Shown in pieces: positions 1,937 through 21,976 of a DNA stretch of 64,000 nucleotides. Origin of the DNA: a phage; the sequence record PZ445527.1. One strand, given 5' to 3'. The translations under genes and the position numbers were made by a program. Below the pieces are notes generated by a model. The model saw only the letters and a list, made by a program, of their open reading frames with translations. It ran no database searches and was not told the DNA's origin. Position 1 is the first letter of the stretch; each line of letters opens with the position of its first letter.

Positions 1937-2214
1937 TTTTTAATCTCCGTAATTATCTGTGCACGCATTACTTTATTAGGTAATTTTGTATTCCCAGCTA
2001 TTGCTTCAATATTATTTAGTTTTTCTTTAAGAATATCTGAGCGTCTTTGTGCTAATTCAATATCTTGCTCTTGCTCTAGTAACCGGTGGTGTAGCCCATC
2101 ATTAGTAATGAGCATACTTTCCATGTTTTTTCGTGCGTTTACAATCCCAATAACTCCACCAATCGCTACTAGCGTAGTAAGAACCAGTAACCCAATAAGA
2201 ATTTCAATCAACAT
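1933..2214 (-). CDS. hypothetical protein with N-terminal TM segment
   Basis: 93 aa; N-terminal hydrophobic helix then charged coiled-coil-like region. Confidence 0.5.
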   Translation of the reverse strand: MLIEILIGLLVLTTLVAIGGVIGIVNARKNMESMLITNDGLHHRLLEQEQDIELAQRRSDILKEKLNNIEAIAGNTKLPNKVMRAQIITEIKK

Positions 2215-2377
2215 TAAATGTCCTTACATTTTTCATTGTTTGGAACTAGTTTACACATCTCCACATTTAACTCGTGGATAGAATTGTCTAGTTCTTCTAA
2301 ACGTGTGTGAAGAAAAACTATACTATATATTAACACTCCTAAAAGGAGTGACAGCATAAAAATGGATAGTCTTTCCA

Positions 2378-2656
2378 TTATTTCTTACCTTTCAGTTGTT
2401 TAACTTCACGCTCAAAGCTAGCTGCACGGCGTTCTGCCACTGCTTGATGCTCCTTAGCAAAGCGTGCCTCTTGTTTTGCTAAGTTAAAGGCCATAGCGTT
2501 CTTGTTAAGAGAATCATACATCTTCTTCATCGCCGGAATAGACATTTTCATCAGTTGCCCCTCAAATCCTTGCATGTCGAGGAGAATTGCTAATACATTG
2601 GCCATTTCAGTCTTGGTAAGGTTAGAGGCGTCGAAGTCTTTAGTCATGTTTTCCAT
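2378..2656 (-). CDS. hypothetical protein
   Basis: ORF 2378..2674; start placed at MENMT Met 7 nt after GAGAGAGG RBS, downstream of promoter at 2689..2717. Confidence 0.55.
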   Translation of the reverse strand: MENMTKDFDASNLTKTEMANVLAILLDMQGFEGQLMKMSIPAMKKMYDSLNKNAMAFNLAKQEARFAKEHQAVAERRAASFEREVKQLKGKK

Positions 2657-2688
2657 TAGAATTTCCTCTCTCATTAATTTATGAACTT

Positions 2689-2717
2689 ATTATACAGAAT
2701 TTTGAGGTTTAAAGCAA
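2689..2717 (-). promoter_or_regulatory. sigma70-type promoter
   Basis: TTGCTT, 17 nt spacer, TATAAT, leader AAGTTCATAAATTAATGAGAGAGG. Confidence 0.6.
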
Positions 2718-2734
2718 CTGAATTTTTTAATTAC

Positions 2735-3166
2735 TTACCAATCGTTAACAACACCAGAGAACTCAGAAGCAAAAACTTTCTCAAATTTTTCTGCAATTTC
2801 AGGATGATCCTTACAGATCAACTCAATACATGCTTCTGGAGTCATTCCTTCGTCTTCAGGATCACCATAATACTTGTCCCAAAGATCGTCAGGGATGATG
2901 TGCTCTGCCAAATCTTGGAAAGAGATTAGCTGATAACGTTCTGCTTCCTCAGGGATAAGGATTTCACAAAGATCTTTATCTATATCACTACGGTAATCAG
3001 CAATTAGCAGGGCATTGCAAGCATGACACTCCCAAACCATCAAGCGTTCAGAAATAGAATTAGACTTATCCTGAATGTAGGACTGAAACAGGGTTCGAAA
3101 AGTAGCTTTAACTTGTTCAAACTTATCTGCTGCTGCAAAAACTAGAGCTTTATCAACTTTGTTCAT
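2735..3166 (-). CDS. hypothetical protein
   Basis: 143 aa ORF preceded by promoter at 3197..3225. Confidence 0.55.
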   Translation of the reverse strand: MNKVDKALVFAAADKFEQVKATFRTLFQSYIQDKSNSISERLMVWECHACNALLIADYRSDIDKDLCEILIPEEAERYQLISFQDLAEHIIPDDLWDKYYGDPEDEGMTPEACIELICKDHPEIAEKFEKVFASEFSGVVNDW

Positions 3167-3855: not shown

Positions 3856-4718
3856 TAAAGGATCCTCTGTACACCACAGCTATTATTTTTGTCAGTGGTA
3901 AATGCTGTGATTTTGCCAGTTTCATCATTAACCTGCGCAACCGTCAACTGCCCGTTGAAAACACCGCCAGTATCAAGATAAACACGGTTTTTATAAAGAA
4001 GTGGGTAAGGTACTCCAGTATGCCCGTGAAACACGAAATCTATCCCTTTAACTTCTGGCACTTCCACCATATATTCTTCTTTAAATCCTGCATAACGCTG
4101 GAAATAGGGGTGTTCCTCAACATTTTTAGACAAGTGGAAGCCTATTTCTTGGATTACATCTCGATCCCATAAATATGGTTCAACATGGTATCCAGGAGGG
4201 TCATGTGGGTCTTCCTTAGCTGCTTCTACTTGTGCAATAAGGTTATCCCATACTGGGGTTTCAACTTCGTTACCACATTCTTTGTACATAAAAGGTACAC
4301 CACCATGAACAACACCATATTTCTTGCCACGATGTTTAACAGTTAGGAATACTGGCATTTTTTCAGCCATGTCTTCGGCAATATTTTTAATGGTATCTGC
4401 ATCTAGTTCATTCATAGCCCACATACCACCGTTATACATCCAGTTAGCCCAATCTCCTACAATCATAAACTGGTCATGATTTCCACGAACGCTACAGAAA
4501 CGTGGATTATACAGGAATTTGGCTAAAACTTGTAGGTTCTGCGTGCCTCGATCAATTAAATCTCCCACGCATACAACGCAATCTTTCTTGCCGTTATAGC
4601 CAGCTAATTGTAGTGCATCTTCTAGCAAATCGTTGCATCCATGAATATCACCAACAAAGAATAAGTTAACATCATCAGGTACTACTAGTGTTTTATGTAC
4701 ATTAAATTCTTTTTTCAT
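3855..4718 (-). CDS. serine/threonine protein phosphatase (PPP family)
   Basis: Motifs GDIHG, GDLIDRG, GNHD as in lambda-type PPP phosphatases; ATG at 4718 sits 2 nt after upstream stop. Confidence 0.8.
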   Translation of the reverse strand: MKKEFNVHKTLVVPDDVNLFFVGDIHGCNDLLEDALQLAGYNGKKDCVVCVGDLIDRGTQNLQVLAKFLYNPRFCSVRGNHDQFMIVGDWANWMYNGGMWAMNELDADTIKNIAEDMAEKMPVFLTVKHRGKKYGVVHGGVPFMYKECGNEVETPVWDNLIAQVEAAKEDPHDPPGYHVEPYLWDRDVIQEIGFHLSKNVEEHPYFQRYAGFKEEYMVEVPEVKGIDFVFHGHTGVPYPLLYKNRVYLDTGGVFNGQLTVAQVNDETGKITAFTTDKNNSCGVQRIL

Positions 4719-6383: not shown

Positions 6384-6800
6384 TTAATCTACTGCATGTA
6401 TAAATCTTTTCCTAACTAGATACATAGTTATTGGGTAAATTGAGTACATAAGTATAGGGGAGAAAAGGGTGAAATACGCTGTAACTCCCCCAGCTAACAT
6501 CAAAGGTATTAATGCTAGAGTAAGGGCCATAAGAATCATACCGAATGAAACAGCCAAAGCTATGGATATAGGATTCTCTAGTTCCATCCATAACCAACAA
6601 TATTTCGTATCTCTGTGGCAATTGCATTTACAAACGCCGAATAAACCCATAATTATATACTCTAGTCCGTGAATAACCTTTATTAATAAGCTATTTCGGG
6701 TAGTTAATGCAATGATAGTAAAGACTATCATTAAAACGAATACTACTAGACTTATTTTCCAAATACCTAGCAGCATCATAGTGAATAGTTCTGCAAACAT
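6384..6800 (-). CDS. integral membrane protein
   Basis: 138 aa with about four hydrophobic helices. Confidence 0.5.
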   Translation of the reverse strand: MFAELFTMMLLGIWKISLVVFVLMIVFTIIALTTRNSLLIKVIHGLEYIIMGLFGVCKCNCHRDTKYCWLWMELENPISIALAVSFGMILMALTLALIPLMLAGGVTAYFTLFSPILMYSIYPITMYLVRKRFIHAVD

Positions 6801-6840: not shown

Positions 6841-6866
6841 CCTAAAAAGGCGGGAGTATTCCCGCC
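6841..6866 (-). terminator. rho-independent terminator after endolysin gene
   Basis: Hairpin GGCGGGA-GTAT-TCCCGCC followed by TTTTT on minus strand. Confidence 0.7.
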
Positions 6867-6875
6867 GTATCTTAC

Positions 6876-7289
6876 TTAAATCAATTCTATATGTGGGCCA
6901 TCAAAAGTACCACGTTGGATTTCATCCTTATAACTTCCGTTCTGGTTCCAATCACCACCCCATCTAATCTTTACCCCTAGCTCTTCTGCTGCCTTAAAGA
7001 AGGCATCTGCCACTAATTTGAATGATTCTAAATCATTCCAATCAATCTTCCCATTTTTAAGAGGAGCAAAGTCAACGGCCAGCCCTTGTACGTGTTTTGA
7101 CTTGCTCGGGTCTTTTAAAAACGAGGTTCCATTCTTAATATTTTGGGCGCTTTGTTCTAAGGAACGTAATCCTTCTGTAATTGTAAAATCATATGGGCTT
7201 AATTCTAAAGCTCTATGAGTTACTCTTACTAAATCTGGATGAACACCCTTTAATCTATCTAAACTTCTTTTACTAAATTTAAAACTCAT
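6876..7289 (-). CDS. lys: endolysin, L-alanyl-D-glutamate peptidase (M15-type)
   Basis: 137 aa; matches the size and sequence character I recall for T5 endolysin; followed by hairpin terminator. Confidence 0.85.
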   Translation of the reverse strand: MSFKFSKRSLDRLKGVHPDLVRVTHRALELSPYDFTITEGLRSLEQSAQNIKNGTSFLKDPSKSKHVQGLAVDFAPLKNGKIDWNDLESFKLVADAFFKAAEELGVKIRWGGDWNQNGSYKDEIQRGTFDGPHIELI

Positions 7290-7942
7290 ATTGACCTACC
7301 TAAAGACCTCTGTTGTGGGGAACAGAGCTTTGCTAAATATTCCTTGAACTGTTCAGAATCAGCTGTATCTACCGGATTATCTTTCCAAGCAATACCAATG
7401 TACCCAGCATAGATATTTTTTAGATTGAAGTATGGACAAGTGTATATGTAATTAAAAGTAATGTTTTTAAACGCAGGTATATTTAACCCCATATATTTAT
7501 TTACTCTTACACTTAAATCCGATGCGTAGTTAAAGCCCTCTAAATGACGTCTGTATAATTCAGACGTTTTATTTACCGCTTTATCGGCCAAGTCAGCCCT
7601 ATCTAATTGCGCATTACTTTCCCATGCAATAATATTGGAATAATCATTGATAGCATCTGGTTTATACTTGACTACAAAAACAGCATCTGCACCCGTCTGA
7701 GAGAAGAGAACCATGCTCTTTTCCCTCGCCACATTAGGGAAGTTATCTATCCTCTGGGTTTGTAAATCCTGTAAAACTGCAGACGTGGAAAAAGTCTTTA
7801 AGAATGACATCACTTCACTAGTATTACTAACGAATAAGAAAATAATGACAGCAACTAAGATAGTTAGCAGACGTTTAAGAAGCGATGCTGGGTCTTTCGC
7901 TTCTTGGAGCAGTACTGTTAATAATTGTAAGAACTTTTCCAA
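7286..7942 (-). CDS. holin (putative)
   Basis: Immediately upstream of and overlapping endolysin; single TM segment LLTILVAVIIFLFV; start placed at TTG 8 nt after AGGAGG giving 218 aa. Confidence 0.6.
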   Translation of the reverse strand: MEKFLQLLTVLLQEAKDPASLLKRLLTILVAVIIFLFVSNTSEVMSFLKTFSTSAVLQDLQTQRIDNFPNVAREKSMVLFSQTGADAVFVVKYKPDAINDYSNIIAWESNAQLDRADLADKAVNKTSELYRRHLEGFNYASDLSVRVNKYMGLNIPAFKNITFNYIYTCPYFNLKNIYAGYIGIAWKDNPVDTADSEQFKEYLAKLCSPQQRSLGRSI

Positions 7943-8098
7943 TTTGTAACCTCCTCTAACCAGTACCATTATACTAATTTTGGAGGAAAATTTCAATGGG
8001 TTTTTAAATGTTATACTTGGAGCACAAAATTATGTCGTTGTCAAGAAGAATTTTAGATAAAAGAAAAGCCAGGGTACTTAACCCTGGCTTAAAATTAC

Positions 8099-8698
8099 TT
8101 ACTCTTCGTTGCGCTCCTCGGATTGAGGTAACTGCGCTTTATTATATTGCTCAGATCGATATTTTGCCAAGATTTCAATACGTTTATGGATTTCCTTGCT
8201 ATCTAGATAGATATTTTTGTTGTCTTTTACCATCTCGTCGATTTCATCTATTGAGAAGAACGGATAGTAGACATCTAGCATCATATCTTCTACGAACTTG
8301 TTGTAAGATTCATAGGCTTTCTTGATTTCTTGACCTTTCTCACAGAACCCGCCAGAGAACGTGTGTCCCATTAGCGTAGCATGTGGATGTACTACCCATC
8401 CATGACAAGATAGGAAAATTGTGCAGTAAGCAGAAGCACTAGGACCAATCAGGTGTCCTATAACTGTTCCACGGCAATTAGCAATTAAGTTAGATAACTG
8501 TGCAGCGGTATCAACATAGCCACCAGGGCCATTAATCATCAGATTAATTTCATCGTCCTCATTTGCCTGCATAAGTACCATTGATAAATCACGGTATTCA
8601 TCCGGCGGACCAAGTTCTTCATCAAAGAAAAAGGTATACTCGTTAGATTGGCGAATAGAGTGGAACAGGTTAGTCTTTTCTTCTTTTTTATTAGTCAT
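8099..8698 (-). CDS. ClpP-like serine protease
   Basis: 199 aa with GPSASAY and HPHATLMGH segments resembling ClpP catalytic Ser and His regions. Confidence 0.65.
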   Translation of the reverse strand: MTNKKEEKTNLFHSIRQSNEYTFFFDEELGPPDEYRDLSMVLMQANEDDEINLMINGPGGYVDTAAQLSNLIANCRGTVIGHLIGPSASAYCTIFLSCHGWVVHPHATLMGHTFSGGFCEKGQEIKKAYESYNKFVEDMMLDVYYPFFSIDEIDEMVKDNKNIYLDSKEIHKRIEILAKYRSEQYNKAQLPQSEERNEE

Positions 8699-8710: not shown

Positions 8711-9463
8711 TTATCCAACTAGTGGTTCTAGCTCTAAGTCACAGAAGTTATACACTTCTAGTTTAAGGTTATTGATACCATCGAATTTATTAACTAATTC
8801 ATGAGTAATATATTTTGCAGGAATACCACTTTCAGATGGATGATCTGATTTAATAGTGAACTTCTGCTCAGCGGGCACTACATTTACTAGTAAAGAATCC
8901 ATATCTAAATGGTTTGTTTCTCTGAGTAACTCTCCTTCATTGGGGAATCTCACATCTGTTATTACGGCGACATCTGGGTCGTCTTTAGCGATGGATTGCT
9001 CCAGAATTATGAGCCAAATGCGTTCATGTACTAGCTGCCTTCCTAGCTCTGTTCCTACGAGCTGTAACATTTTTCTCGGAGAAATAAATAAACTATAAAG
9101 TCCATCTTCTTTATTCTCTGAGATAAGTTGTTGAGGATTAAGATATTTTTCCTCAAAAATAGGCCAAACGTACGAGAAGTCCTCAAACTTATCGATACCA
9201 TATTTAAACCATACGTCTCTAGCTCGCTCCAATTGATATTGTGTGACCGTAAACCATTGGTCAATCTCTTTCCCCCTGCGCTCTCCTAGAAACTCTGGAG
9301 TTACCCCGAGGATTACGGATGCAAGCTCATAAACTGGTTTAGCAAAACTGTAACGACGTGGTAAACACGTTGGATACGTGTCATTACACCAATCGATAAT
9401 TAATTTTGCAACGGTATCTTTTCCTGCACCTGCCTCGCCATGTAAACCTACTAATACTGACAT
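8711..9463 (-). CDS. deoxynucleoside monophosphate kinase
   Basis: 250 aa; P-loop GEAGAGKDT at N-terminus; size and sequence as T5 dNMP kinase. Confidence 0.8.
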   Translation of the reverse strand: MSVLVGLHGEAGAGKDTVAKLIIDWCNDTYPTCLPRRYSFAKPVYELASVILGVTPEFLGERRGKEIDQWFTVTQYQLERARDVWFKYGIDKFEDFSYVWPIFEEKYLNPQQLISENKEDGLYSLFISPRKMLQLVGTELGRQLVHERIWLIILEQSIAKDDPDVAVITDVRFPNEGELLRETNHLDMDSLLVNVVPAEQKFTIKSDHPSESGIPAKYITHELVNKFDGINNLKLEVYNFCDLELEPLVG

Positions 9464-9816
9464 TAATCTTTCCTATTGTTAATGGGTGGATAGTAAATTA
9501 AGCAACGTTTTTCTTGTAAATCTTGGCGATAGAAGCAAACCATACTAGTCAATCGTGAGATATATGAATATTCTGCCTCCCGACATTTTGCTAACATATT
9601 CCAATCTTTATATGGTACAACAACTACTACACCATCTTCGCCATTTGTAGCTAATTTCTTTTCGAATTTGAAATCAAAGCTACAAGGCTGAAGTCCTTTA
9701 GGCCAATCTACATGAGCTGTTGGTAGCTCATGTGTAGGTTCTGGCTTTACTTCTTGTGCACAGCCTGTGATTGTGATTGCGGCTGTGAGCAGTATTCCAC
9801 ACTTCCAGTTAAACAT
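9463..9816 (-). CDS. lipoprotein (candidate o-spanin)
   Basis: Signal peptide with lipobox ITGC; start embedded in the 3-prime end of the upstream TM/coiled-coil ORF. Confidence 0.5.
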   Translation of the reverse strand: MFNWKCGILLTAAITITGCAQEVKPEPTHELPTAHVDWPKGLQPCSFDFKFEKKLATNGEDGVVVVVPYKDWNMLAKCREAEYSYISRLTSMVCFYRQDLQEKRCLIYYPPINNRKD

Positions 9817-10190
9817 GCTAATCTTTCCTCGAACTCCTTACTCTGCTTTTTAGCAATTAATGTAACCAATCCAGGCTTTGCAGCTATAATATCTTGACGA
9901 CTAAGTGCTTTATCAAGCTGGGAGATCTTCTTATCAAGATCTTGTTGGGAAATATTATGGAAAGTGAAATATTGATTCATACGTGTTTCACGTTGTTCAC
10001 TTTCAACTTTAATCTTGTTTAAGGAAGTTTCTAGAGTAGAGATCTTTTTAGTAGCTACTGCAAGATCACCTGATAGAGTCTCAACCTTATTAACTAAGTG
10101 ATAAGCACCGAATCCGATGCCTATCGCTAGACCTGCTCCCAGGATATACCATTTACCTTGCCATAGAGAACTAATAAAGTTTTTTATCAT
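9747..10190 (-). CDS. TM plus coiled-coil protein (candidate i-spanin)
   Basis: N-terminal TM helix WYILGAGLAIGIGFGAY followed by coiled-coil-like region; overlaps downstream lipoprotein gene by 70 nt. Confidence 0.5.
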   Translation of the reverse strand: MIKNFISSLWQGKWYILGAGLAIGIGFGAYHLVNKVETLSGDLAVATKKISTLETSLNKIKVESEQRETRMNQYFTFHNISQQDLDKKISQLDKALSRQDIIAAKPGLVTLIAKKQSKEFEERLACLTGSVEYCSQPQSQSQAVHKK

Positions 10191-10867
10191 CTTTTCATAT
10201 TCCTGAATGACGTAACCGTATCAAATCCATGTGCTGCTAGGCGGTCTTTATCAGAAGTGGTAATAATATCTGGTTCTCCTGTTCCAAGTACACCCCAAAT
10301 ATACTGCTCGATTCTTTGGTGCAGCCGATATAGGTTAGGTTCCACACTCTGCCACGGAATACCTGATAGGTGTAGACGCGGATTAGTTATAACCTTGAAG
10401 TATTTATTGTTATCTTTATCATTTGGAACTAATGAATCTAGAACTGCTAACGGTACTCTTAACTCAGTTAAGGCTTCTTCAGCTTTGGGGGTAACTTCTT
10501 CTTGCCATGCTAAGATAGACTCTTTTGGCTTCCCCCTATTTATGTCTAGCAAAGAAAACCCTGTTGACCATCCCTTCTCCTCCAAAATTTCTAACGCCTC
10601 GTCCAAACTGAAGGTTTTTACTTGGGTATCCAGTACATCAATGTGGTATAACCAGTAAATCTCCCCAGCTAGGAAGAAAGGCAAAATTTTAAAGTAGCCA
10701 ATCTTTCCCTCAATACGAGCAATCCTACGTTCTTGCATGATCATATAGTTGTCATCATCTGGGGCTTTTATTGTTAGCTCTTCAGTTTTACGTTCCCAAA
10801 CGCGATCGGGGTCGAACAAACTGTTCTGCAAATCATACACATCTACGAATTTAGAGATGATTCTCAT
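10187..10867 (-). CDS. hypothetical protein
   Basis: 226 aa ORF downstream of promoter 10899..10927. Confidence 0.55.
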   Translation of the reverse strand: MRIISKFVDVYDLQNSLFDPDRVWERKTEELTIKAPDDDNYMIMQERRIARIEGKIGYFKILPFFLAGEIYWLYHIDVLDTQVKTFSLDEALEILEEKGWSTGFSLLDINRGKPKESILAWQEEVTPKAEEALTELRVPLAVLDSLVPNDKDNNKYFKVITNPRLHLSGIPWQSVEPNLYRLHQRIEQYIWGVLGTGEPDIITTSDKDRLAAHGFDTVTSFRNMKR

Positions 10868-15618: not shown

Positions 15619-15692
15619 TGGCAGGGGATATTGGATTTGAACCAATGATCTCGACTTCAAAGGCCGTTGTGCTAACCGTTACACTACTCTCC
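15619..15692 (-). tRNA. tRNA, possibly Gln (anticodon TTG)
   Basis: T-arm ATTGG-TTCAAAT-CCAAT, anticodon loop CTTTGAA, encoded CCA; acceptor stem pairs imperfectly so boundaries and isotype are uncertain. Confidence 0.45.
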
Positions 15693-15784
15693 AATTGTTT
15701 GGCTGGAGTGCCTGATTCAATCCCAGGCACCTTCGGAGTCAGAGGCCGACGACTTGACAATTGATCTACACCTCAAGAATACTA

Positions 15785-16021
15785 TTAACTAGATGCTGGT
15801 TCTGCTGGCTGAGATACAGCAGGCTGTTCTAATGTATCTGGTGCTGATACAGAGAAAAGAGCTTGTAATGCTGCAATATCACGCTCGTAAGTTTCAATAC
15901 GAGTAGTAAGAGTATCTACCATCTGTTTATGATAGGCTAAGTTATTCTGAGATTCATCTCGAAGGGTTTGCAGTTCTGCAAGACGTGTTAACATAATTTC
16001 ACTAATTAAAGCATTACTCAT
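15785..16021 (-). CDS. hypothetical protein
   Basis: 78 aa ORF, helical heptad-like character. Confidence 0.45.
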   Translation of the reverse strand: MSNALISEIMLTRLAELQTLRDESQNNLAYHKQMVDTLTTRIETYERDIAALQALFSVSAPDTLEQPAVSQPAEPASS

Positions 16022-16211
16022 TTGTTTCTCCTAAATTTTCCGGTTCTTCTAAACGTTTGCCTTCATGATCTACTCGAATAACTCCGCATCCTTCGCAAAT
16101 CACAACTGCACCATAACCTTCTTTGACTTCAGCTTCTGTAATCAAACCAGAAAGATCACCAGTATCTCTGCCCCACATATCAATGGAGCATTGTTTGCAG
16201 AAATCAGCCAT
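16014..16211 (-). CDS. small zinc-ribbon-like protein
   Basis: 65 aa with CKQC and CEGC pairs. Confidence 0.45.
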   Translation of the reverse strand: MADFCKQCSIDMWGRDTGDLSGLITEAEVKEGYGAVVICEGCGVIRVDHEGKRLEEPENLGETNE

Positions 16212-16236
16212 ATTTTATTTCCTATTTAAGTTAATT

Positions 16237-16313
16237 TGGGGTGGCTAGTGGAACTCGAATCCACATAGGCCTGATTCACAATCAGGATCATTAACCAATT
16301 ATGATATAGCCAC
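16237..16313 (-). tRNA. tRNA-His (anticodon GTG)
   Basis: Manual fold: acceptor GTGGCTA/TAGCCAC, D-stem TCAT/ATGA, anticodon stem CCTGA/TCAGG with loop TTGTGAA, T-arm GTGGA-TTCGAGT-TCCAC, CCA encoded. Confidence 0.8.
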
Positions 16314-16534
16314 AATTGAAAACTCGCAGGGTTAGCGAAACCATCCTCAATTAGCATGTTCTAGAATACTAATCAAGTTATCTCCTATTGCACGCAGCTC
16401 AAGACGAGTACGAATTTTCAATTGTGGCGGCTCTCAGAAACTCTTCTATTCTAGCCTCAGAAGCTTACCCCCGAACGCATGTCGGGAAAGTCTTTCCAAG
16501 CGCATCAAATAGCACCGTTACACTTTGAGCCATT

Positions 16535-16610
16535 GATGTATCAAGGAATAGAAGGACTTGAACCTTCATGAGTTAGACCATTTAACTCAACCGCTTTTTA
16601 GGGTATATTT
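16535..16610 (-). tRNA. tRNA-like element (unresolved)
   Basis: Perfect T-arm GAAGG-TTCAAGT-CCTTC on minus strand but acceptor and anticodon arms could not be paired by eye. Confidence 0.25.
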
Positions 16611-16679
16611 CTAGGAGTGGATGTTCCTAGTAAACCTATTCGGCAGTCCCGTCTACCAATTCCGGCATATTCCAAGATT

Positions 16680-16774
16680 TGGAGGTAGGTAAGGGGATCG
16701 AACCATTACACCGTATCACTACGGTCAACCGATTTCAAGTCGGAGTCCATCGCCAGCCGTTGGATTGACCTACC
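16680..16774 (-). tRNA. tRNA-Ser (anticodon TGA), class II
   Basis: Acceptor GGTAGGT/ACCTACC perfect, anticodon loop CTTGAAA, long variable arm, CCA encoded. Confidence 0.75.
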
Positions 16775-16786
16775 TTATAAATTGTT

Positions 16787-16871
16787 TGGTGGGTTAGGAG
16801 AGACTCGAACTCTCACGCACTTAAGCAAGGGCTTCTAAGACCCTCGTGGCTACCAATTACACCACTAACCC
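16787..16871 (-). tRNA. tRNA-Leu (anticodon TAG), class II
   Basis: Acceptor GGGTTAG/CTAACCC, anticodon stem AGGGT/GCCCT with loop CTTAGAA, long variable arm, T-arm GAGAG-TTCGAGT-CTCTC, CCA. Confidence 0.75.
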
Positions 16872-16877
16872 CTAATT

Positions 16878-16952
16878 TGGTGGACAGTAGGAGAGTCGAA
16901 CTCCTCACTCCTGAGTGCAAGTCAGGTATTTTCCCAGATAAACTAACCGCCC
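16878..16952 (-). tRNA. tRNA-Ala (anticodon TGC)
   Basis: Acceptor GGGCGGT with G3-U70 wobble, anticodon stem CCTGA/TCAGG with loop CTTGCAC, T-arm AGGAG-TTCGACT-CTCCT, CCA. Confidence 0.75.
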
Positions 16953-17191
16953 AAATTCTTTAATTTACTAAGGCTATTAGCTCGGCGTAACTACAGCACC
17001 TTCGCTTCAAGCGGAAGGAACCGCGTCATCTCGCAAACCCAATACACTATTCAGTTGCCGCTGAATCTAGTGGACTAATCTAGAACTTCTCCCGAGTCGT
17101 AGGGATCGTGCTTTTTGGCAGCCAGTCCTAGGTCGAGCTAATACCTTAGTGAATTATGATGAGGATTTCTCCCATATCAATTTATATAAAT

Positions 17192-17220
17192 ATTATAACA
17201 AGAAATTAATCATCAAGCAA
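17192..17220 (-). promoter_or_regulatory. sigma70-type promoter upstream of non-coding leader and tRNA-Ala/Leu/Ser
   Basis: TTGCTT, 17 nt spacer, TATAAT, then conserved leader ATATTTATATAAATTGA. Confidence 0.65.
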
Positions 17221-17321
17221 TTGAGTTTTTCTTGAAATTGGTAGCGGGTTCCAGTACTGCCCTGGACTTACTTAGCTTATGAGACTAAGAAGAACTCTAT
17301 GCCTTCCACCCGCAATTGTTT

Positions 17322-17400
17322 GGTTATTCTAGACAGGATTCGAACCTGTTATCACTTGTGCGGACTTACGAGAACCATTCTTTCACTCGAATCGAACGAG
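17322..17400 (-). tRNA. tRNA-like element (unresolved)
   Basis: Perfect T-arm ACAGG-TTCGAAT-CCTGT followed by ACCA; remaining arms not confidently paired. Confidence 0.3.
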
Positions 17401-17567
17401 CTTCTGCCCTAGCCAAGCTGGTTTCCCCATCAACCACGCTAGAATGTTTGATTGTTTTCAGTGCAAGAGTCCGAGTCTTGGACACGACCGTTTCGCAAGT
17501 ACATAGGCAGCTTATCATGAGTCAGCACTTCCGAATTGCTAGCCCCGTGTTCTGCACTGAAATTTTA

Positions 17568-17915
17568 TTAGTTTAACCGTAAAGTATTATCTAATTCACC
17601 ATTAATTGTTCGGCATTCCTCTGGAATTGCTGGTGTGGCCTTGTATTCCCACCACTCAGCACCATCATATTCCCCACGTTCTAGCCAAGTTCCGTCGGCA
17701 AACCATACATTACCATAAAGTAATTGTCCACCGTATCCAGAATCATACTCAAAGTCTAGGTTATCAAGAAAATCCTCAATATCTTCTTCTGTATAGCCTA
17801 AAGGTAATACCCAAACTTTTTTATCCCCATAATACCCGAATTCTATTTTAATACACTTAATTTTAGAATTGGTATTTTTTAAGGCAAGTAACAACTCTTC
17901 TTTAGCATTACGCAT
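17568..17915 (-). CDS. hypothetical protein
   Basis: 115 aa ORF between tRNA groups. Confidence 0.5.
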   Translation of the reverse strand: MRNAKEELLLALKNTNSKIKCIKIEFGYYGDKKVWVLPLGYTEEDIEDFLDNLDFEYDSGYGGQLLYGNVWFADGTWLERGEYDGAEWWEYKATPAIPEECRTINGELDNTLRLN

Positions 17916-17940
17916 AGTATATTCTCATACTGAATTAATT

Positions 17941-18017
17941 TGGCGCGACTGATGGGATTTGAACCCACATTCCCTCCCGTGATAGGGGAGTACCATTACC
18001 AAGCCAGCCACGGTCGC
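17941..18017 (-). tRNA. tRNA with unusual anticodon loop CTATCAC (anticodon ATC, isotype uncertain)
   Basis: Acceptor GCGACCG/CAGTCGC, anticodon stem CTCCC/GGGAG, T-arm GTGGG-TTCAAAT-CCCAT, CCA encoded. Confidence 0.6.
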
Positions 18018-18026
18018 ATAATTTAT

Positions 18027-18212
18027 TTACTCAGCTTTGAGTTTTTCAATAGCTGCATTAAGTTCTTTAAGAAACTCTTTTCGTACATTAAGACGATTGA
18101 GACTTACTAGTATATCATGTTTAAGTTCTTCGATGTATTTCTTCTCAACTTCAATATTGTTGATAGTGCTATCACGATGAACTTCTAGCTGCGCAATCAC
18201 ATTCTTGGACAT
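18027..18212 (-). CDS. hypothetical protein
   Basis: 61 aa ORF, charged helical. Confidence 0.4.
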   Translation of the reverse strand: MSKNVIAQLEVHRDSTINNIEVEKKYIEELKHDILVSLNRLNVRKEFLKELNAAIEKLKAE

Positions 18213-18314
18213 GCTTGTTTCCTCAGTTATTAATGAAAATGGTATCTGTGGCTGAATTAGATGTCAGCAATGATAGCTGGTTGGCTACCGGTTTACTTAA
18301 CTCTACACAGAATT

Positions 18315-18397
18315 TGGCGGGCCGTGTAGGATTCGAACCTACGTTGTCTTTCGACACGGATTAACAATCCGCCGCCAAACCGCTTGGCTAACGACCC
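18315..18397 (-). tRNA. tRNA-Asn-like (anticodon GTT) with extended variable arm
   Basis: Acceptor GGGTCGT/ACGGCCC, D-stem GCCA/TGGC, anticodon stem GCGGA/TCCGT loop TTGTTAA, 13-nt variable hairpin, T-arm GTAGG-TTCGAAT-CCTAC, CCA. Confidence 0.6.
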
Positions 18398-18552
18398 TAA
18401 AAAATTTATATTGCTGACTAGGGTTTTCACCTAGACGGAGTTAGCACCGTAGCGTGTAGCGGCATACCTCTCCAAACCGTGCCTCATCTTTCAATTACGG
18501 AGACAGTGTTCCTACGCGTGCCTGAATTGATTTAACAATTCTTTCAGCAAAT

Positions 18553-18628
18553 TGGACGACCGCATGAGGATTGAACTCACATAAAAAGGATTTGCAATCC
18601 TTCGCCTAAGCCATTCAGCCAACGGTCG
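18553..18628 (-). tRNA. tRNA-Cys (anticodon GCA)
   Basis: Acceptor CGACCGT/GCGGTCG, anticodon stem AAGGA/TCCTT loop TTGCAAA, T-arm GTGAG-TTCAATC-CTCAT, CCA. Confidence 0.75.
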
Positions 18629-18806
18629 ATTTATCTTGTTTTTCGAGATCTTCAAACTCTAAATCATTGAAGTTCCCTAGAGTACGGGTATAGAACCCAT
18701 CCCCTGCGTCATAGCCTGATTTACCACAATCACACATTTTAAATTCGCGCAGGTGTGTGAAAACATGTTCAGAACCACAACACTTAAATCTAACTAATCG
18801 TTTCAT
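18615..18806 (-). CDS. small Cys-containing protein
   Basis: 63 aa; CCGSEH and CDCG motifs; 3-prime end overlaps tRNA-Cys by about 14 nt; promoter at 18835..18863. Confidence 0.4.
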   Translation of the reverse strand: MKRLVRFKCCGSEHVFTHLREFKMCDCGKSGYDAGDGFYTRTLGNFNDLEFEDLEKQDKSTVG

Positions 18807-18834
18807 TAGCTTCTCCAGTTCAATTTATGTAATT

Positions 18835-18863
18835 ATTATATAGAACTTTTGGGAACTAAGCAA
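18835..18863 (-). promoter_or_regulatory. sigma70-type promoter
   Basis: TTGCTT, 17 nt spacer, TATAAT. Confidence 0.6.
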
Positions 18864-19145
18864 CTACATTTTTTAAGAATTTGATGCCTTTCTTTTTCTT
18901 CTTATATTTCCACGTTAATGGATTCTGTCGATTATGAACGCTTGAGATCTTTGTCTCGTCAAAGTTCTTCAATATCATGTAATCACAAGATAATTGTTCT
19001 AGTGGAATGTGATCACCGTCAAAAGCGTATACATAAGGCTGTTGACTAGCACGATAATGATAGACTTTGTTAATTCTACGTTTCAGCGACTTATCCGCGC
19101 AGTAAATAAAGAAGTTTTAAGGGTGCATCAGCATCTCCTTCAATT

Positions 19146-19229
19146 TGGTGCATCGTGCTGGATTTGAACCACCAACCCCGAAGGGCACGGATTTACAGAC
19201 CGCTGCAATAGCCATTCTGCCAACGATGC
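19146..19229 (-). tRNA. tRNA-Tyr (anticodon GTA), class II
   Basis: Acceptor GCATCGT/ACGATGC, D-stem GCAG/TTGC, anticodon stem GCGGT/TCCGT loop CTGTAAA, long variable arm, CCA. Confidence 0.8.
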
Positions 19230-19357
19230 ACATTTAAAAGTATTCAAATACTAGTTTAAACACTTTTAAATATGTTTCCAAATTAGATAACTATTATACC
19301 AAGTTTTAAGGCACTGAGCAAGTCAGATTTTGAAGAACTTGCTCAGTGCTGTATTAG

Positions 19358-19642
19358 TTAGTCGAACTTAGGAGTGACAGATAAGGAGAACGGAAGTTCA
19401 AAAACTTCTTCACCCTCATTACTAACGGTAACTACACGACCTTTAAGTTCAGACATTAAAATATCAATATCAGCTTTTGCATCTGGAGCCATGCCAGCTT
19501 CAATACATTTAGCTTTAACTTCCGGTAAAAGCTCTACGTTATAGAGATAGAGCCACTCAATCTCACCTTCCCAGTCTTCCCAGTCTTCCCAGGATTTGCA
19601 GATTGCACTTTCAATACCAGTTGCTACAACACGATTTTGCAT
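19358..19642 (-). CDS. hypothetical acidic protein
   Basis: 94 aa with WEDWEDWEGEIEW repeat; promoter 19673..19702 upstream. Confidence 0.5.
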   Translation of the reverse strand: MQNRVVATGIESAICKSWEDWEDWEGEIEWLYLYNVELLPEVKAKCIEAGMAPDAKADIDILMSELKGRVVTVSNEGEEVFELPFSLSVTPKFD

Positions 19643-19672
19643 TCGTTAACTCCTTCATCAATTTATATAACT

Positions 19673-19702
19673 ATTATACCAGAAATTTAAAGCAAAAGGC
19701 AA
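19673..19702 (-). promoter_or_regulatory. sigma70-type promoter
   Basis: TATAAT with TTGCCT 18 nt upstream. Confidence 0.5.
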
Positions 19703-19732
19703 GTACATTTTTAAAAATTCTGTTTGGAGGAG

Positions 19733-19939
19733 CTAAACTCCAGATTCTTCTGCCAAGTCTAGACTAATAAGAGTTATAGCCATAATTGCTGCACCGTGTT
19801 CTTTTTCTCCGGTGTTTTTAGCAGAGTCTATAATATCCTTAATCTGTTCGTAATAACTTTTTACTTCTTGTTCAATGCCTGCCTCGGCTATCATGCCTTT
19901 AGTCATGAGTCGTTGCATGGTAATTTCAGTATTAGCCAT
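19733..19939 (-). CDS. hypothetical protein
   Basis: 68 aa ORF. Confidence 0.45.
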   Translation of the reverse strand: MANTEITMQRLMTKGMIAEAGIEQEVKSYYEQIKDIIDSAKNTGEKEHGAAIMAITLISLDLAEESGV

Positions 19940-20114
19940 GTTGTTTCTCCAGTTTCATTTTTAATAGTTTACAAATGAAATCAACGTCTTCATCCGTGCC
20001 TAGATCTCTATCTTCAAGGGTTGCCTTGAAATTTTTTGTTAGTTCCATAAGAATAACTTCCCTGGAACGACGTGTTGGCGGGGGTGGATGTCTATACATC
20101 TTATTTCCTTAATT

Positions 20115-20189
20115 TGGTGGGTCGGAGGAGAATCTAACTCCTACTCGTTAGCTTATGAGGCCACCGCTTTAACTTTAAGCTACCGACCC
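20115..20189 (-). tRNA. tRNA-Met or Ile2 (anticodon CAT)
   Basis: Acceptor GGGTCGG/CCGACCC perfect, D-stem GCTT/AAGC, anticodon loop CTCATAA, T-arm AGGAG-TTAGATT-CTCCT, CCA. Confidence 0.75.
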
Positions 20190-20195
20190 TATGTT

Positions 20196-20284
20196 TGGCG
20201 GAAGAAGTGGGAATCGAACCCACAAGGCTATATTTCAAACCGACAGATTAGCAATCTGCTGCAATACCGTTATGCTATTCTTCC
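20196..20284 (-). tRNA. tRNA-Ser (anticodon GCT), class II
   Basis: Acceptor GGAAGAA/TTCTTCC, anticodon stem GCAGA/TCTGT loop TTGCTAA, long variable arm, T-arm GTGGG-TTCGATT-CCCAC, CCA. Confidence 0.8.
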
Positions 20285-20298
20285 GAATTTATAAATAT

Positions 20299-20327
20299 AT
20301 TATATTAGAAATTTAGCTTCATAGCAA
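20299..20327 (-). promoter_or_regulatory. sigma70-type promoter directly upstream of tRNA-Ser(GCT)/tRNA-Met
   Basis: TTGCTA, 17 nt spacer, TATAAT, with the tRNA 5-prime end about 15 nt downstream. Confidence 0.65.
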
Positions 20328-20823
20328 GAAAATTTTTCAAGTTTTCGGTAGACATCTCATCCACATCTACAGGAGAAACAAATCCATTTAATTGTCTAGC
20401 AAATTTTTTACCAGCAGGATCATTATCCCCAACAGCTACCAATTTAAAAGGTAGTAATTTCAATTGCTTTAATAGCGCTTTTCCTGGAGAAGAACCCAAC
20501 ATTGCCAAGGCTGGATAACCAGCGTTATGTAACGCAACTGCCTTAAATACAGATTCAGCAATCAATACCACTTTTTCATCTCCATTGAGAGTTTCTAGTC
20601 CCCATACACACTGTGTAGTAGAATAAGTAAAATATCTAGCTTCAAAGGGGCACTTACCATGACCTTTTGGAGCAGAAGGATTATAAGTCTGATAGCCTCT
20701 CAACATCCCAGAGAAGTCATACAATGGGACTGTTAGCCATCCTTCCGGGCTTAACCAGCAATGATATTTATCTGTATCAAACCCTCTAGATAAGAGATGT
20801 TCTGTTAGTTCATCAACAGTCAT
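20305..20823 (-). CDS. hypothetical protein (possible Toprim-like fold)
   Basis: 172 aa; VAVGDNDPAGKKF resembles a DxD Toprim motif, assignment tentative. Confidence 0.5.
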   Translation of the reverse strand: MTVDELTEHLLSRGFDTDKYHCWLSPEGWLTVPLYDFSGMLRGYQTYNPSAPKGHGKCPFEARYFTYSTTQCVWGLETLNGDEKVVLIAESVFKAVALHNAGYPALAMLGSSPGKALLKQLKLLPFKLVAVGDNDPAGKKFARQLNGFVSPVDVDEMSTENLKNFLAMKLNF

Positions 20824-20860
20824 ATTTGATCCCCTAGTTAGTTGTATAAATACATTATAC

Positions 20861-20894
20861 AGAAAAGCCCTGCGCTCTCCAGTGAACGCAGGGC
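20861..20894 (-). terminator. rho-independent terminator
   Basis: Stem GCCCTGCG...CGCAGGGC followed by T-run on minus strand, after SPFH gene stop. Confidence 0.55.
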
Positions 20895-20919
20895 TTACTT
20901 CGAATATTACGTGTGGGTA

Positions 20920-21867
20920 TTACTTGTTACGCATATCCATAATCATTTGGCCATCGTAACCAGTGCCAACCACAGTCTGCGGTACACCACCTTGATACTT
21001 CTGAGCACGAATCATTTCAACTTCTAGTTGCTTCCAGCGAATCATCTCAGGAGTAATGGTACGTTGCAGAGCGGCGTTAGCTTCAGCTTCTTTCTTAGCT
21101 GCGTACAGTTTAGCATCTGCATCACGTTCGTTTGCAATAGCTTGGTTGTTACGAGCTTCACGATCTGCTTCTGCTTGTTTAACCTTCTGCTGTGCTTCTT
21201 GTTCAACACGAGCCAACTCAGCTTTCGCAGCATTAACTTGTTCTTCACGAACTTTGGTATTCTGTACCTGTTCCATGATTACAGGCGGCAAAGTAATATC
21301 CTGAAGGAACACTTGCTTAACTGTGTAACCATAAGGGCGTGCATACTCTTCAACTTCCTGTTGAATTGCAGTTTGCAATTGAGCCTGAATTTTAGCATCA
21401 AACAAATCTTGTGCTTTAGGTACAGACTTACCAAACTCACGAATAGTAGACAGTAATTTTTCAGTTACATACTTGTCTAGTGCCTGATCCTGAGTACCTG
21501 CATTAATACGGTTAATCGGTGCCTTAGAACCATCAAACTGCAACATAACAGTCAGGTCAACAGTGGATTTAAACTTATCCTGACTAGGAACCTGAAGTTT
21601 ATCTAATTTTACAGCAATATCTTTTGTACTGAAAGTATCGAAAGATGCAAACGGGTTTACAATATGGAAACCAGGTAATACTGGATTAGGGTCTACTTTA
21701 CCAAGAAATGTTTGGGTTTTAACCGTACCATCAGAAACAATAGTATATGAATTAAAAGCTAGGATTAAACCTGCTAAACCAACTACAGCACCAATACCCC
21801 AACGTTTAATAGTACGGATTACTTTCTGCTCAGAAGTCAGTTCTTTCATATTTTTAGTAGCAAACAT
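20920..21867 (-). CDS. SPFH/band-7 (HflK/C, stomatin-like) domain protein
   Basis: 315 aa; N-terminal TM helix, SPFH-like core, long Ala/Gln/Glu-rich coiled-coil C-terminus. Confidence 0.65.
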   Translation of the reverse strand: MFATKNMKELTSEQKVIRTIKRWGIGAVVGLAGLILAFNSYTIVSDGTVKTQTFLGKVDPNPVLPGFHIVNPFASFDTFSTKDIAVKLDKLQVPSQDKFKSTVDLTVMLQFDGSKAPINRINAGTQDQALDKYVTEKLLSTIREFGKSVPKAQDLFDAKIQAQLQTAIQQEVEEYARPYGYTVKQVFLQDITLPPVIMEQVQNTKVREEQVNAAKAELARVEQEAQQKVKQAEADREARNNQAIANERDADAKLYAAKKEAEANAALQRTITPEMIRWKQLEVEMIRAQKYQGGVPQTVVGTGYDGQMIMDMRNK

Positions 21868-21901
21868 ATATTTCCTTTGTTTTAGTTACAGTTAATAAAA
21901 T

Positions 21902-21976
21902 TGGCCGAGGTGACAGGATTCGAACCTGCATAAAGGAATTTAGAAGACTCCTGCCTCTCCCTTAGACTACACCCCG
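21902..21976 (-). tRNA. tRNA-Arg (anticodon TCT)
   Basis: Acceptor CGGGGTG/CACCTCG, D-stem GTCT/AGGC, anticodon stem GGAGT/ATTCC loop CTTCTAA, T-arm GCAGG-TTCGAAT-CCTGT, CCA. Confidence 0.8.

Follow-up and report, generated by a model that had tools for sequence, protein, structure and literature searches.

We analysed a 64-kb stretch of phage DNA (hereafter the window), whose source is a T5-like phage (Tequintavirus) with approximately 95% identity to phages Tennessee and HildyBeyeler. Two overlapping reading frames on the minus strand of the window, both with an ATG start, are arranged so that the gene for a predicted inner-membrane spanin subunit (i-spanin) lies upstream of the gene for a predicted outer-membrane lipoprotein subunit (o-spanin), and their coordinates give an overlapped architecture. 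The features of these genes and of their downstream neighbors are as follows.

9747..10190, minus strand: i-spanin gene, 147 amino acids; PHROG 739; orthologue of T5 orf15c / T5.045
10092..10151, minus strand: predicted N-terminal transmembrane helix, i-spanin residues ~14-33 (Kyte-Doolittle, AlphaFold)
9960..10091, minus strand: predicted periplasmic helix alpha-1 with heptad periodicity, i-spanin residues 34-77 (heptad score, AlphaFold)
9823..9830, minus strand: Shine-Dalgarno-like GAGGAAAG, read from the upstream sequence; within the i-spanin coding sequence
9747..9816, minus strand: 70-nt dual-coding overlap, i-spanin C-terminal tail and o-spanin signal peptide/lipobox
9463..9816, minus strand: o-spanin gene, 117-amino-acid precursor, 99-amino-acid mature lipoprotein (predicted); orthologue of T5 orf14c / T5.044
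9760..9771, minus strand: lipobox I-T-G-C, residues 16-19; Cys19 is predicted to be lipidated and to begin the mature protein
8711..9463, minus strand: dNMP kinase gene; Pfam DNMK 3.4e-10; named dNMP kinase in relatives
8099..8698, minus strand: ClpP-like protease gene; Pfam CLP_protease 4.6e-8; PHROG 1827 6.4e-90
8066..8090, minus strand: terminator-like hairpin, 10-bp stem and T-run; consensus match only
7968..7996, minus strand: sigma-70-like promoter, TTGAAA-17-TATAAT, 11/12, upstream of the holin; consensus match only
7286..7942, minus strand: T4-type holin T, 218 amino acids; TTG start at 7942 with GAGGAGG upstream; Pfam Phage_holin_T 5.7e-112
6876..7289, minus strand: endolysin, M15 L-alanyl-D-glutamate peptidase type; Peptidase_M15_4 2.1e-9; PHROG 465 9.6e-58

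The product of the upstream gene matches PHROG 739 'Rz-like spanin' at 6.1e-37 and shares 84.4% identity with T5 orf15c and as much as 98.6% with the proteins of other T5-like phages; its orthologue in HildyBeyeler carries the label i-spanin. The top Kyte-Doolittle 19-residue window covers residues 15-33 (YILGAGLAIGIGFGAYHLV, mean 1.55), a Gly-rich segment of moderate hydrophobicity, and the same scan of this protein gave no second hydrophobic segment. The heptad score peaks at residues 34-61, at a value reached by 0 of 500 shuffles. The AlphaFold model, built from single-sequence input and of low confidence overall (pLDDT 66.6), contains one unbroken helix at residues 3-77, where residues 41-70 reach pLDDT 89-96, followed by another at residues 82-97. 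Two cysteines, C126 and C134, are located in the predicted periplasmic part. Hydropathy, heptads and the model all point to a single N-terminal transmembrane domain followed by a helical or coiled-coil remainder, which is the anatomy of an i-spanin.

The product of the downstream gene matches PHROG 812 'Rz-like spanin' at 9.4e-30 and is 96.6% identical to T5 orf14c; its orthologues are labelled o-spanin in HildyBeyeler and Shivani, and the precomputed Pfam annotation PF26831 is present on all of its homologue clusters. The lipobox cysteine is invariant in all 55 of these clusters. The residues at +2/+3 are Ala-Gln, therefore the protein carries no Asp inner-membrane retention signal, and across the 55 clusters the +2 residue is Ala, Ser, Thr or another residue and is Asp in none. 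A lipoprotein signal peptide, a lipobox cysteine and a +2 residue other than Asp are thus all present, as in an o-spanin, from which lipidation and outer-membrane localisation are predicted. No hydrophobic segment was found in this protein beyond the signal peptide. We rejected a unimolecular spanin of the T1 gp11 type, because the o-spanin is without a C-terminal transmembrane segment and a separate transmembrane partner exists.

The mature o-spanin contains four cysteines (C45, C78, C94, C105), which together with the two of the i-spanin are conserved across Demerecviridae, and equivalents of C94 and C105 are found in 54 of the 55 homologue clusters. Periplasmic cysteines are available in both proteins for putative disulfide bonds within homodimers. 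The structural model of the o-spanin (pLDDT 79.7) consists of a beta-hairpin and a long helix, and its fold matches in BFVD are themselves o-spanins, among them that of Providencia phage PR1, the 'Rz1' of Shigella phage Sf25 and PseT.2 of Acinetobacter phage 133. A Foldseek search of this model against the PDB returned nothing at E<=0.001, a PDB sequence search gave nothing significant, and local Pfam-A and NCBIfam scans of both proteins yielded no meaningful match, only weak coiled-coil noise.

These results bear out the earlier note, which had read 9747..10190 as an i-spanin-like protein with a transmembrane helix and a coiled coil, 9463..9816 as an o-spanin-like lipoprotein with the lipobox ITGC, and the two as an overlapped pair: the hydropathy maximum and the AlphaFold helix, the PHROG 812 match with Cys19, and the 70-nt overlap agree with it, and the coiled-coil prediction that it had suggested as a check gave the heptad maximum described above. 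The finding that it had named as evidence against its proposal, retention of the lipoprotein in the inner membrane only, is not favored by the +2 residues.

The overlap encodes residues 125-147 of the i-spanin, including C126 and C134, and residues 1-23 of the o-spanin, with codon position 1 of the o-spanin corresponding to codon position 3 of the i-spanin. It is identical in 24 T5-like loci, and the T5 spanin overlap is likewise reported as 70 bp (Kongari et al. 2018, PMC6139136). Its sequence is under dual-coding constraint: the overlap has a nucleotide diversity of 0.053, compared with 0.085 and 0.096 in the flanks, and third-position diversity in the o-spanin frame drops from 0.189 to 0.026. 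The Shine-Dalgarno-like GAGGAAAG is located 6 nt upstream of the o-spanin ATG; the gene following the o-spanin is preceded by a related motif, AGGAAAGATTA.

AT-rich phage DNA can yield overlapping reading frames by chance, and the o-spanin is omitted or truncated in many annotations, as one might expect if one of the two frames were a chance reading frame and only a single protein were made. We regard this as hardly conceivable and rejected it in view of the conservation of the pair: all 40 related viral contigs carry it intact, with both frames open and their features conserved at identities down to ~25%. A hydrophobic N-terminal segment was found in the upstream partner in 35 of these loci by script and in the other 5 from their translations. 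The invariant lipobox cysteine, the Shine-Dalgarno-like sequence before the internal start and the lowered diversity in the overlap also speak against a chance frame, as does phage Shivani, where a homing endonuclease splits the spanin genes and both reading frames nevertheless stay complete.

A homologue search with a single sequence returned 5 clusters only, and relatives of the T4 type came within reach only with a profile search. GenBank and RefSeq relatives label the two orthologues i-spanin and o-spanin, and the DT57C RefSeq record labels them 'Rz-like spanin'. The 'T5 family' is catalogued among the overlapped spanins by Kongari et al. 2018 (PMC6139136), and the T5-type pair is also catalogued in the Shivani genome paper (PMC4342426). 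In many T5-like records one or both genes appear as 'hypothetical protein', or the o-spanin is omitted or truncated, as in a Klebsiella phage where it is annotated as 51 amino acids only. Judged by sequence, then, 9747..10190 and 9463..9816 are a T5-type spanin pair, orthologous to T5 orf15c/orf14c (T5.045/T5.044); the pair of the window is real, already known and the standard, published T5 arrangement, and its function is plausible. It carries little weight as a discovery: public T5-like genomes already annotate it, and the main survey of spanins lists it. Its practical use lies in clean coordinates and features for those T5-like records that show a 'hypothetical protein' or a truncated o-spanin.

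Downstream of the pair, the dNMP kinase start and the o-spanin stop have one base in common, and the terminator-like hairpin is located between the ClpP-like gene and the predicted holin promoter. We set the holin start at TTG 7942 because this codon is preceded by a Shine-Dalgarno sequence and yields the 218-amino-acid length annotated in relatives, where the holin homologues are given as 657 nt; a 236-amino-acid reading frame from TTG 7996 was rejected because its TTG coincides with the -35 hexamer of the promoter-like site. As the earlier note had pointed out, approximately 1.5 kb separate the o-spanin stop (9463) from the holin start (7942), with the ClpP-like protease and the dNMP kinase in between, and the coordinates and Pfam and PHROG matches confirm this layout. 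The gap is a conserved family trait and no oddity of the window: throughout Demerecviridae the genes follow one another as i-spanin, o-spanin, dNMP kinase, ClpP-like protease, holin and endolysin, and My1, KKP_3711 and a Klebsiella phage retain this synteny at 25-45% identity. The spanin genes sit amid early-type nucleotide-metabolism genes, outside any late lysis cassette.

The site of the pair upstream of the dNMP kinase and ClpP-like protease genes suggests early-gene expression, a hint that rests on tight gene packing and on the terminator- and promoter-like signals preceding the holin. From this one could argue that the proteins form a spanin-like complex whose primary role is different or additional, for example an early envelope function, with disruption of the outer membrane being dispensable or achieved by another route; the four extra conserved cysteines and the C-terminal tail of the T5-type pair, absent in T4, could be read in the same way. 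However, the T4 spanin genes, too, lie at a distance from t and e, yet encode bona fide spanins (PMC6139136), and we found no positive evidence for another role. Position does not discriminate here, because the T5-like holin and endolysin share the same early-type block. We consider a different primary role very unlikely.

The same early-type block beside the dNMP kinase, in which predicted signals divide the pair from the holin and endolysin, could also be taken to favor the possibility that the lipoprotein modifies the envelope or excludes superinfecting phages and that the upstream membrane protein is an unrelated early product. T5 indeed encodes such a protein, the early lipoprotein Llp, which blocks the FhuA receptor (cited in PMC4342426), and a T5-specific lysis experiment was not found in the searchable literature. 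Yet the homology of both proteins to the T4-type PseT.3/PseT.2 extends along their whole length, and the T4 pair has been tested; the lipoprotein gene always co-occurs with that of its transmembrane partner; the pair of cysteines needed for function is conserved; and Shivani, which is without llp, retains the spanin pair. An Llp-like exclusion lipoprotein is highly improbable and was rejected on account of the homology and the paired gene.

We conclude that the two proteins very probably constitute the two-component spanin of this T5-like phage, which would carry out the last step in lysis of its Gram-negative host. Searches of the literature for experiments on the T5 spanin proteins themselves found none in what is searchable, and searches by the names T5.044, T5.045, T5p043 and T5p044, or for Tequintavirus i-/o-spanin, returned no paper; for this reason the assignment of spanin function rests on T4 homology and on anatomy. 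The moderate hydrophobicity of the transmembrane segment, the lack of a local Pfam match for either protein, the low confidence of the i-spanin model, the lack of a solved structure to compare with and the position among early-type genes speak against the spanin reading. What the data themselves show is the anatomy of the sequences, their conservation, the dual-coding constraint, the homology to the T4-type pair and the conserved synteny; that the proteins form a complex, depend on degradation of the wall, fuse membranes and require disulfides is carried over here by analogy with lambda and T4 work.

On this basis, the 147-residue i-spanin would be anchored in the inner membrane via its one N-terminal helix, leaving in the periplasm a mostly helical domain that is probably coiled-coil-like over residues 34-77. 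The 117-residue o-spanin would be exported, lipidated at Cys19 and, because its +2 residue is Ala and not Asp, presumably directed to the inner leaflet of the outer membrane, where its mature domain is predicted to comprise a flexible linker, the beta-hairpin and the long helix. The two proteins may bind to each other by their C-terminal parts and thereby form a periplasm-spanning bridge through the peptidoglycan mesh, and this complex would be idle so long as the wall is intact. Triggering of the T-type holin and breakdown of the wall by the M15 endolysin would then release the complexes to cluster and collapse, which would bring the inner and outer membranes together so that they fuse and the last barrier to release is gone. 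As with T4, whose counterparts of C94 and C105 are both indispensable, disulfides would be expected to be necessary.

In comparison with known systems, the pair agrees most closely with the T5 family (T5.045/T5.044): both genes are orthologous (84.4% and 96.6% identity, respectively), the 70-nt overlap is identical and the neighbors are the same, with no substantial difference apart from minor signal-peptide substitutions at the o-spanin N-terminus.

Lambda Rz/Rz1 consist of a type II inner-membrane coiled-coil protein and an outer-membrane lipoprotein; their reading frames overlap, and they act after holin and endolysin. The T5-type pair belongs to the same functional class, but neither a Pfam Rz nor an Rz1 match was obtained at E<=0.1, and no sequence relation to lambda Rz/Rz1 was detectable. 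We rejected membership in the lambda family on the grounds of this lack of a Pfam match and of an architecture that is overlapped rather than embedded. The whole of lambda Rz1 lies inside Rz, and its mature form is short, without predicted or detected helical structure (PMC6139136), whereas the mature o-spanin described here has 99 amino acids, a predicted beta-hairpin and helix, and only its first 23 codons in the overlap.

The T4-type spanins PseT.3/PseT.2, represented in our comparison by the phage T2 locus, are homologous to the T5-type pair. PHROG 739 and 812 are common to both (T2 PseT.3 and PseT.2 match them at 8.5e-37 and 3.5e-43, respectively), and the o-spanins of both also carry PF26831. 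In BLASTP comparisons the o-spanin is 30% identical to T2 PseT.2, with a common C-terminal M-x-C-[FY]-Y-R-Q-x-L-x-E-x-x-C, and the i-spanin is 25% identical to T2 PseT.3, with a KPGLV motif in both; the H-x-x-W-P and C-[FY]-Y-R-x-x-L-x-E-x-x-C motifs of T4-type o-spanins are also present here. Complementation of a lambda Rz-am Rz1-am lysogen has been shown for T4 PseT.3/PseT.2, in which C87 and C98 of PseT.2 are each essential (PMC6139136); these two residues align with C94 and C105 of the o-spanin. The o-spanin model also agrees with the beta-alpha-beta organisation described for T4 PseT.2 (PMC6139136). In neither phage are the spanin genes next to those for holin and endolysin, and the holin here is of the T4 type as well.

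The T4-type genes differ in having an overlap of only 4 nt, against 70 nt here, and in being assigned to the 'separated' class. The T5-type i-spanin is ~30 amino acids longer than PseT.3 and has a tail with C-x2-G-x4-C (C126, C134) that PseT.3 lacks, the T4-type i-spanin being without cysteine; the extra o-spanin cysteines C45 and C78 correspond to an aromatic residue and a Trp in the T4 type. The pair at 9463..10190 thus shows neither the separated architecture nor the cysteine-free i-spanin of T4 itself, which places it in a distinct subfamily rather than among T4-type members in the narrow sense. One could go further and suppose that the T5-type pair is a mechanistically distinct, six-cysteine offshoot of PseT.3/PseT.2, in which an internal C45-C78 disulfide would replace the aromatic/Trp contact and the gained i-spanin tail, wholly inside the overlap, would add a covalent i-i or i-o link that lambda and T4 do not use, the overlap existing because of this tail and being constrained by it. 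We think this rather unlikely. With its many cysteines and its overlapped genes, the T5-type pair, a relative of the T4 spanins that have been tested, offers a convenient natural variant for finding out which disulfides are really required for spanin function.

The earlier note had called a candidate overlapped spanin pair in the window, and both minus-strand ORFs are present where it placed them; anatomy, homology and conservation all support its interpretation. The observation is correct and already known from prior literature, since the spanin genes of a T5 family were reported to overlap by 70 bp (PMC6139136). In that spanin survey, Kongari et al. 2018 list a "T5 family" among i-spanin and also o-spanin families, with T5, EPS7, Stitch, SPC35, AKFV33, FFH1, DT57C, My1, phiR201 and Shivani as members (PMC6139136). 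Our literature search found no experiment on the T5 spanin proteins themselves. The features of the locus are as follows.

10187..10867, minus strand, 226-aa ORF (PHROG 4243, no Pfam family), overlapping the i-spanin start by 4 nt
10190..9747, minus strand, i-spanin gene, 147-aa ORF
9816..9463, minus strand, o-spanin gene, 117-aa ORF
8099..8698, minus strand, ClpP-like protease gene (Pfam CLP_protease 4.6e-8, PHROG 1827)
8090..8066, minus strand, terminator-like hairpin after the ClpP-like gene (consensus scan)
7996..7968, minus strand, sigma-70-like promoter upstream of the holin (consensus scan; 11/12 match, TTGAAA-17-TATAAT)
7942, minus strand, likely TTG start of the holin, with GAGGAGG ahead of it
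6866..6849, minus strand, terminator-like hairpin after the endolysin (consensus scan)
6384..6800, minus strand, gene for a 138-aa hydrophobic protein (PHROG 5944), directly downstream of the endolysin

Over the 4.2 kb around the pair, the window shares 95% identity with Salmonella phage Tennessee and Escherichia phage HildyBeyeler; about 450 records of T5-like phages match this stretch at 80-95% identity. These identities, as sequence evidence, make the window a Tequintavirus-type member of Demerecviridae. Compared with the T5 early C-region fragment, the i-spanin is 84.4% identical to orf15c and the o-spanin 96.6% identical to orf14c. The orthologues in HildyBeyeler are annotated as i-spanin and o-spanin; both in the DT57C RefSeq record are named "Rz-like spanin", and its notes equate one with T5.044 and the other with T5p044.

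The i-spanin begins with a short N-terminus containing two lysines, followed by its sole hydrophobic segment (residues 15-33, YILGAGLAIGIGFGAYHLV, Kyte-Doolittle mean 1.55) and a charged domain. The heptad pattern is strongest at residues 34-61, and its score was reached by 0/500 shuffles of the periplasmic part. The AlphaFold model, built from a single sequence and of low overall confidence (pLDDT 66.6), shows a continuous helix at residues 3-77 (pLDDT 89-96 at 41-70) and a second helix at 82-97. The o-spanin starts with MFNWKCGILLTAAITITGC, a signal peptide with the lipobox I-T-G-C at its end (Cys19). Ala-Gln follows directly, so the Asp(+2) signal for inner-membrane retention is absent. Its model, built on 55 homologue sequences (pLDDT 79.7), consists of a linker, a beta-hairpin (50-55, 61-66) and a long helix (69-96). 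This model matched no solved structure; its matches among predicted viral structures are o-spanins, including those of Providencia phage PR1, Shigella phage Sf25 ("Rz1") and Acinetobacter phage 133 (PseT.2).

The two ORFs overlap by 70 nt, with o-spanin codon position 1 falling on i-spanin codon position 3. A Shine-Dalgarno-like GAGGAAAG, read from the sequence, lies within the i-spanin gene 6 nt 5' of the o-spanin ATG. Nucleotide diversity among 25 T5-like sequences is lower in the overlap (0.053) than in the flanks that code in one frame only (0.085 and 0.096), and o-spanin third-position diversity falls from 0.189 to 0.026 inside the overlap, as expected for two constrained frames.

We examined 40 related loci from IMG/VR. 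The lipoprotein ORF is intact in all 40. A script picked out the TM-bearing partner upstream of it in 35; in the remaining five, the partner can be seen in the translated sequence.

Arrangement of the i-spanin and o-spanin ORFs in related loci
T5-likes: 24 loci, 70-nt overlap (five GTG-start loci included and confirmed)
T5-likes with an endonuclease gene insert: 3 loci, 666-nt gap
Klebsiella phages: 2 loci, 88-nt overlap
My1: 1 locus, 34-nt overlap
Contig L043: 1 locus, 16-nt overlap
T4-likes: 9 loci, 4-nt overlap

Five T5-like contigs (L021, L026, L027, L032, L033) start the o-spanin with GTG instead of ATG, a change that is synonymous in the i-spanin frame (Ala GCA to GCG). In Shivani (L005, 3305..4003), as well as in L018, L019 and L022, a homing-endonuclease gene of ~0.7 kb (PHROG 681/559) sits exactly at the spanin overlap, as already described by Kongari et al. 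2018 (PMC6139136). With the insert the two genes are separated and no longer overlap, and both ORFs stay complete: the i-spanin retains both cysteines but ends in a new 141-aa C-terminus, and the N-terminus of the o-spanin becomes MHKIK. The L043 pair, at 2136..2815 of the 47.5-kb contig IMGVR_UViG_3300027849_000015, has T5-type cysteines (i-spanin C114/C122 plus one in the TM segment; four in the o-spanin), and its 16-nt overlap is intermediate in architecture between T5-like and T4-like loci. The annotation of Klebsiella phage vB_Kpn_K7_rec17 gives a 51-aa fragment of the o-spanin (4049..4204); the full gene is a 109-aa lipoprotein ORF from 3875, overlapping the i-spanin by 88 nt, which implies that gene callers often miss the overlapped start.

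The gene order runs 226-aa gene, i-spanin, o-spanin, dNMP kinase, ClpP-like protease, holin, endolysin, small membrane protein. It is kept in HildyBeyeler, DT57C, Shivani, Pectobacterium phage My1, a Klebsiella phage and Enterobacter phage KKP_3711; the spanins of the last three share just 25-46% identity with the window's. The 1.5-kb distance from the holin and endolysin noted earlier is therefore a fixed family trait; T4 spanin genes also lie away from t and e (PMC6139136). The ClpP-like gene lies between spanins and holin in every Demerecviridae locus examined, among early-type genes and not with head genes. My1, the Klebsiella phage and KKP_3711 have a similar-sized gene where the window has the 226-aa ORF, whose translation may be coupled to that of the spanins. 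In the same three phages the endolysin is followed by a gene similar in size to the 138-aa ORF, whose product apparently has several membrane segments and is a candidate accessory protein or regulator of lysis. Elsewhere in the window lies a tRNA gene cluster of the kind usual in T5-like phages (12 genes, 15619..21976, minus strand), in which a tRNA-Asp call at 17941..18017 has the unusual anticodon ATC.

The ORFs lie close together all the way from the 226-aa gene through the ClpP-like gene (4-nt, 70-nt and 1-nt overlaps, then a 12-nt gap). The consensus scans predict that the spanins are probably transcribed together with the dNMP kinase and ClpP-like genes and the holin-endolysin separately: hairpins directly after the ClpP-like gene and the endolysin, plus the promoter-like site, suggest a separate unit, with promoter-like sites in total no more numerous than in shuffled sequence. 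The true holin start is likely TTG 7942, giving a 218-aa protein as annotated in relatives. A 236-aa ORF from TTG 7996 (minus strand) was rejected; that TTG belongs to the -35 hexamer of the promoter-like site.

The holin matches Pfam Phage_holin_T at 5.7e-112 and the endolysin is an M15 peptidase. Our own evidence comprises anatomy, homology and conservation; complex formation, disulfide linkage and membrane fusion are inferred from studies of lambda and T4 (PMC6139136 and the Berry et al. papers that it cites). From homology with T4 and analogy with lambda, the inner membrane would hold the i-spanin and the outer membrane the lipidated o-spanin. The C-terminal parts of the two would bind each other, giving a complex that crosses the periplasm and passes through the murein mesh. 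After the T-type holin has let the endolysin out and the wall has been degraded, the complexes would be free to cluster and collapse, and would fuse the inner and outer membranes.

Neither spanin matched the Pfam-A copy scanned (which lacks PF26831), NCBIfam or PDB sequences. Both matched "Rz-like spanin" profiles, the i-spanin phrog_739 (6.1e-37) and the o-spanin phrog_812 (9.4e-30), profiles that phage T2 PseT.3 (8.5e-37) and PseT.2 (3.5e-43), representing the T4-type i-spanin and o-spanin, also match. In pairwise BLASTP, the o-spanin is 30% identical to T2 PseT.2, with H-x-x-W-P and M-x-C-[FY]-Y-R-Q-x-L-x-E-x-x-C in common, and the i-spanin 25% identical to PseT.3, sharing KPGLV. A profile search of a 5.8-billion-protein collection yielded 58 clusters of T5-type and T4-type o-spanins, all carrying precomputed Pfam PF26831 but one, a truncated sequence.

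The four periplasmic cysteines of the o-spanin are C45, C78, C94 and C105. C94 and C105 occur in 54/55 homologue clusters and align with T4 C87 and C98, both essential for T4 spanin function (PMC6139136). In the cluster alignment, C45 and C78 (about 9682..9684 and 9583..9585) occur together in 20 of the 55 clusters, the T5-type; in 34 others, the T4-type, they are jointly replaced by an aromatic residue (Y/W/H) and Trp. This all-or-none covariation suggests that the two positions may touch in the fold, through a disulfide in T5-type and an aromatic contact in T4-type proteins.

The o-spanin model is close to the beta-alpha-beta organisation predicted for T4 PseT.2 by Kongari et al. (PMC6139136). 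The T5-type i-spanin is ~30 residues longer than PseT.3 and ends in C-x2-G-x4-C (C126, C134), a motif that PseT.3 lacks; it is kept in all Demerecviridae examined, and this tail is coded wholly inside the 70-nt overlap. Lambda Rz/Rz1 has no sequence relation to the window's pair, and its architecture is embedded, whereas that of the window is overlapped.
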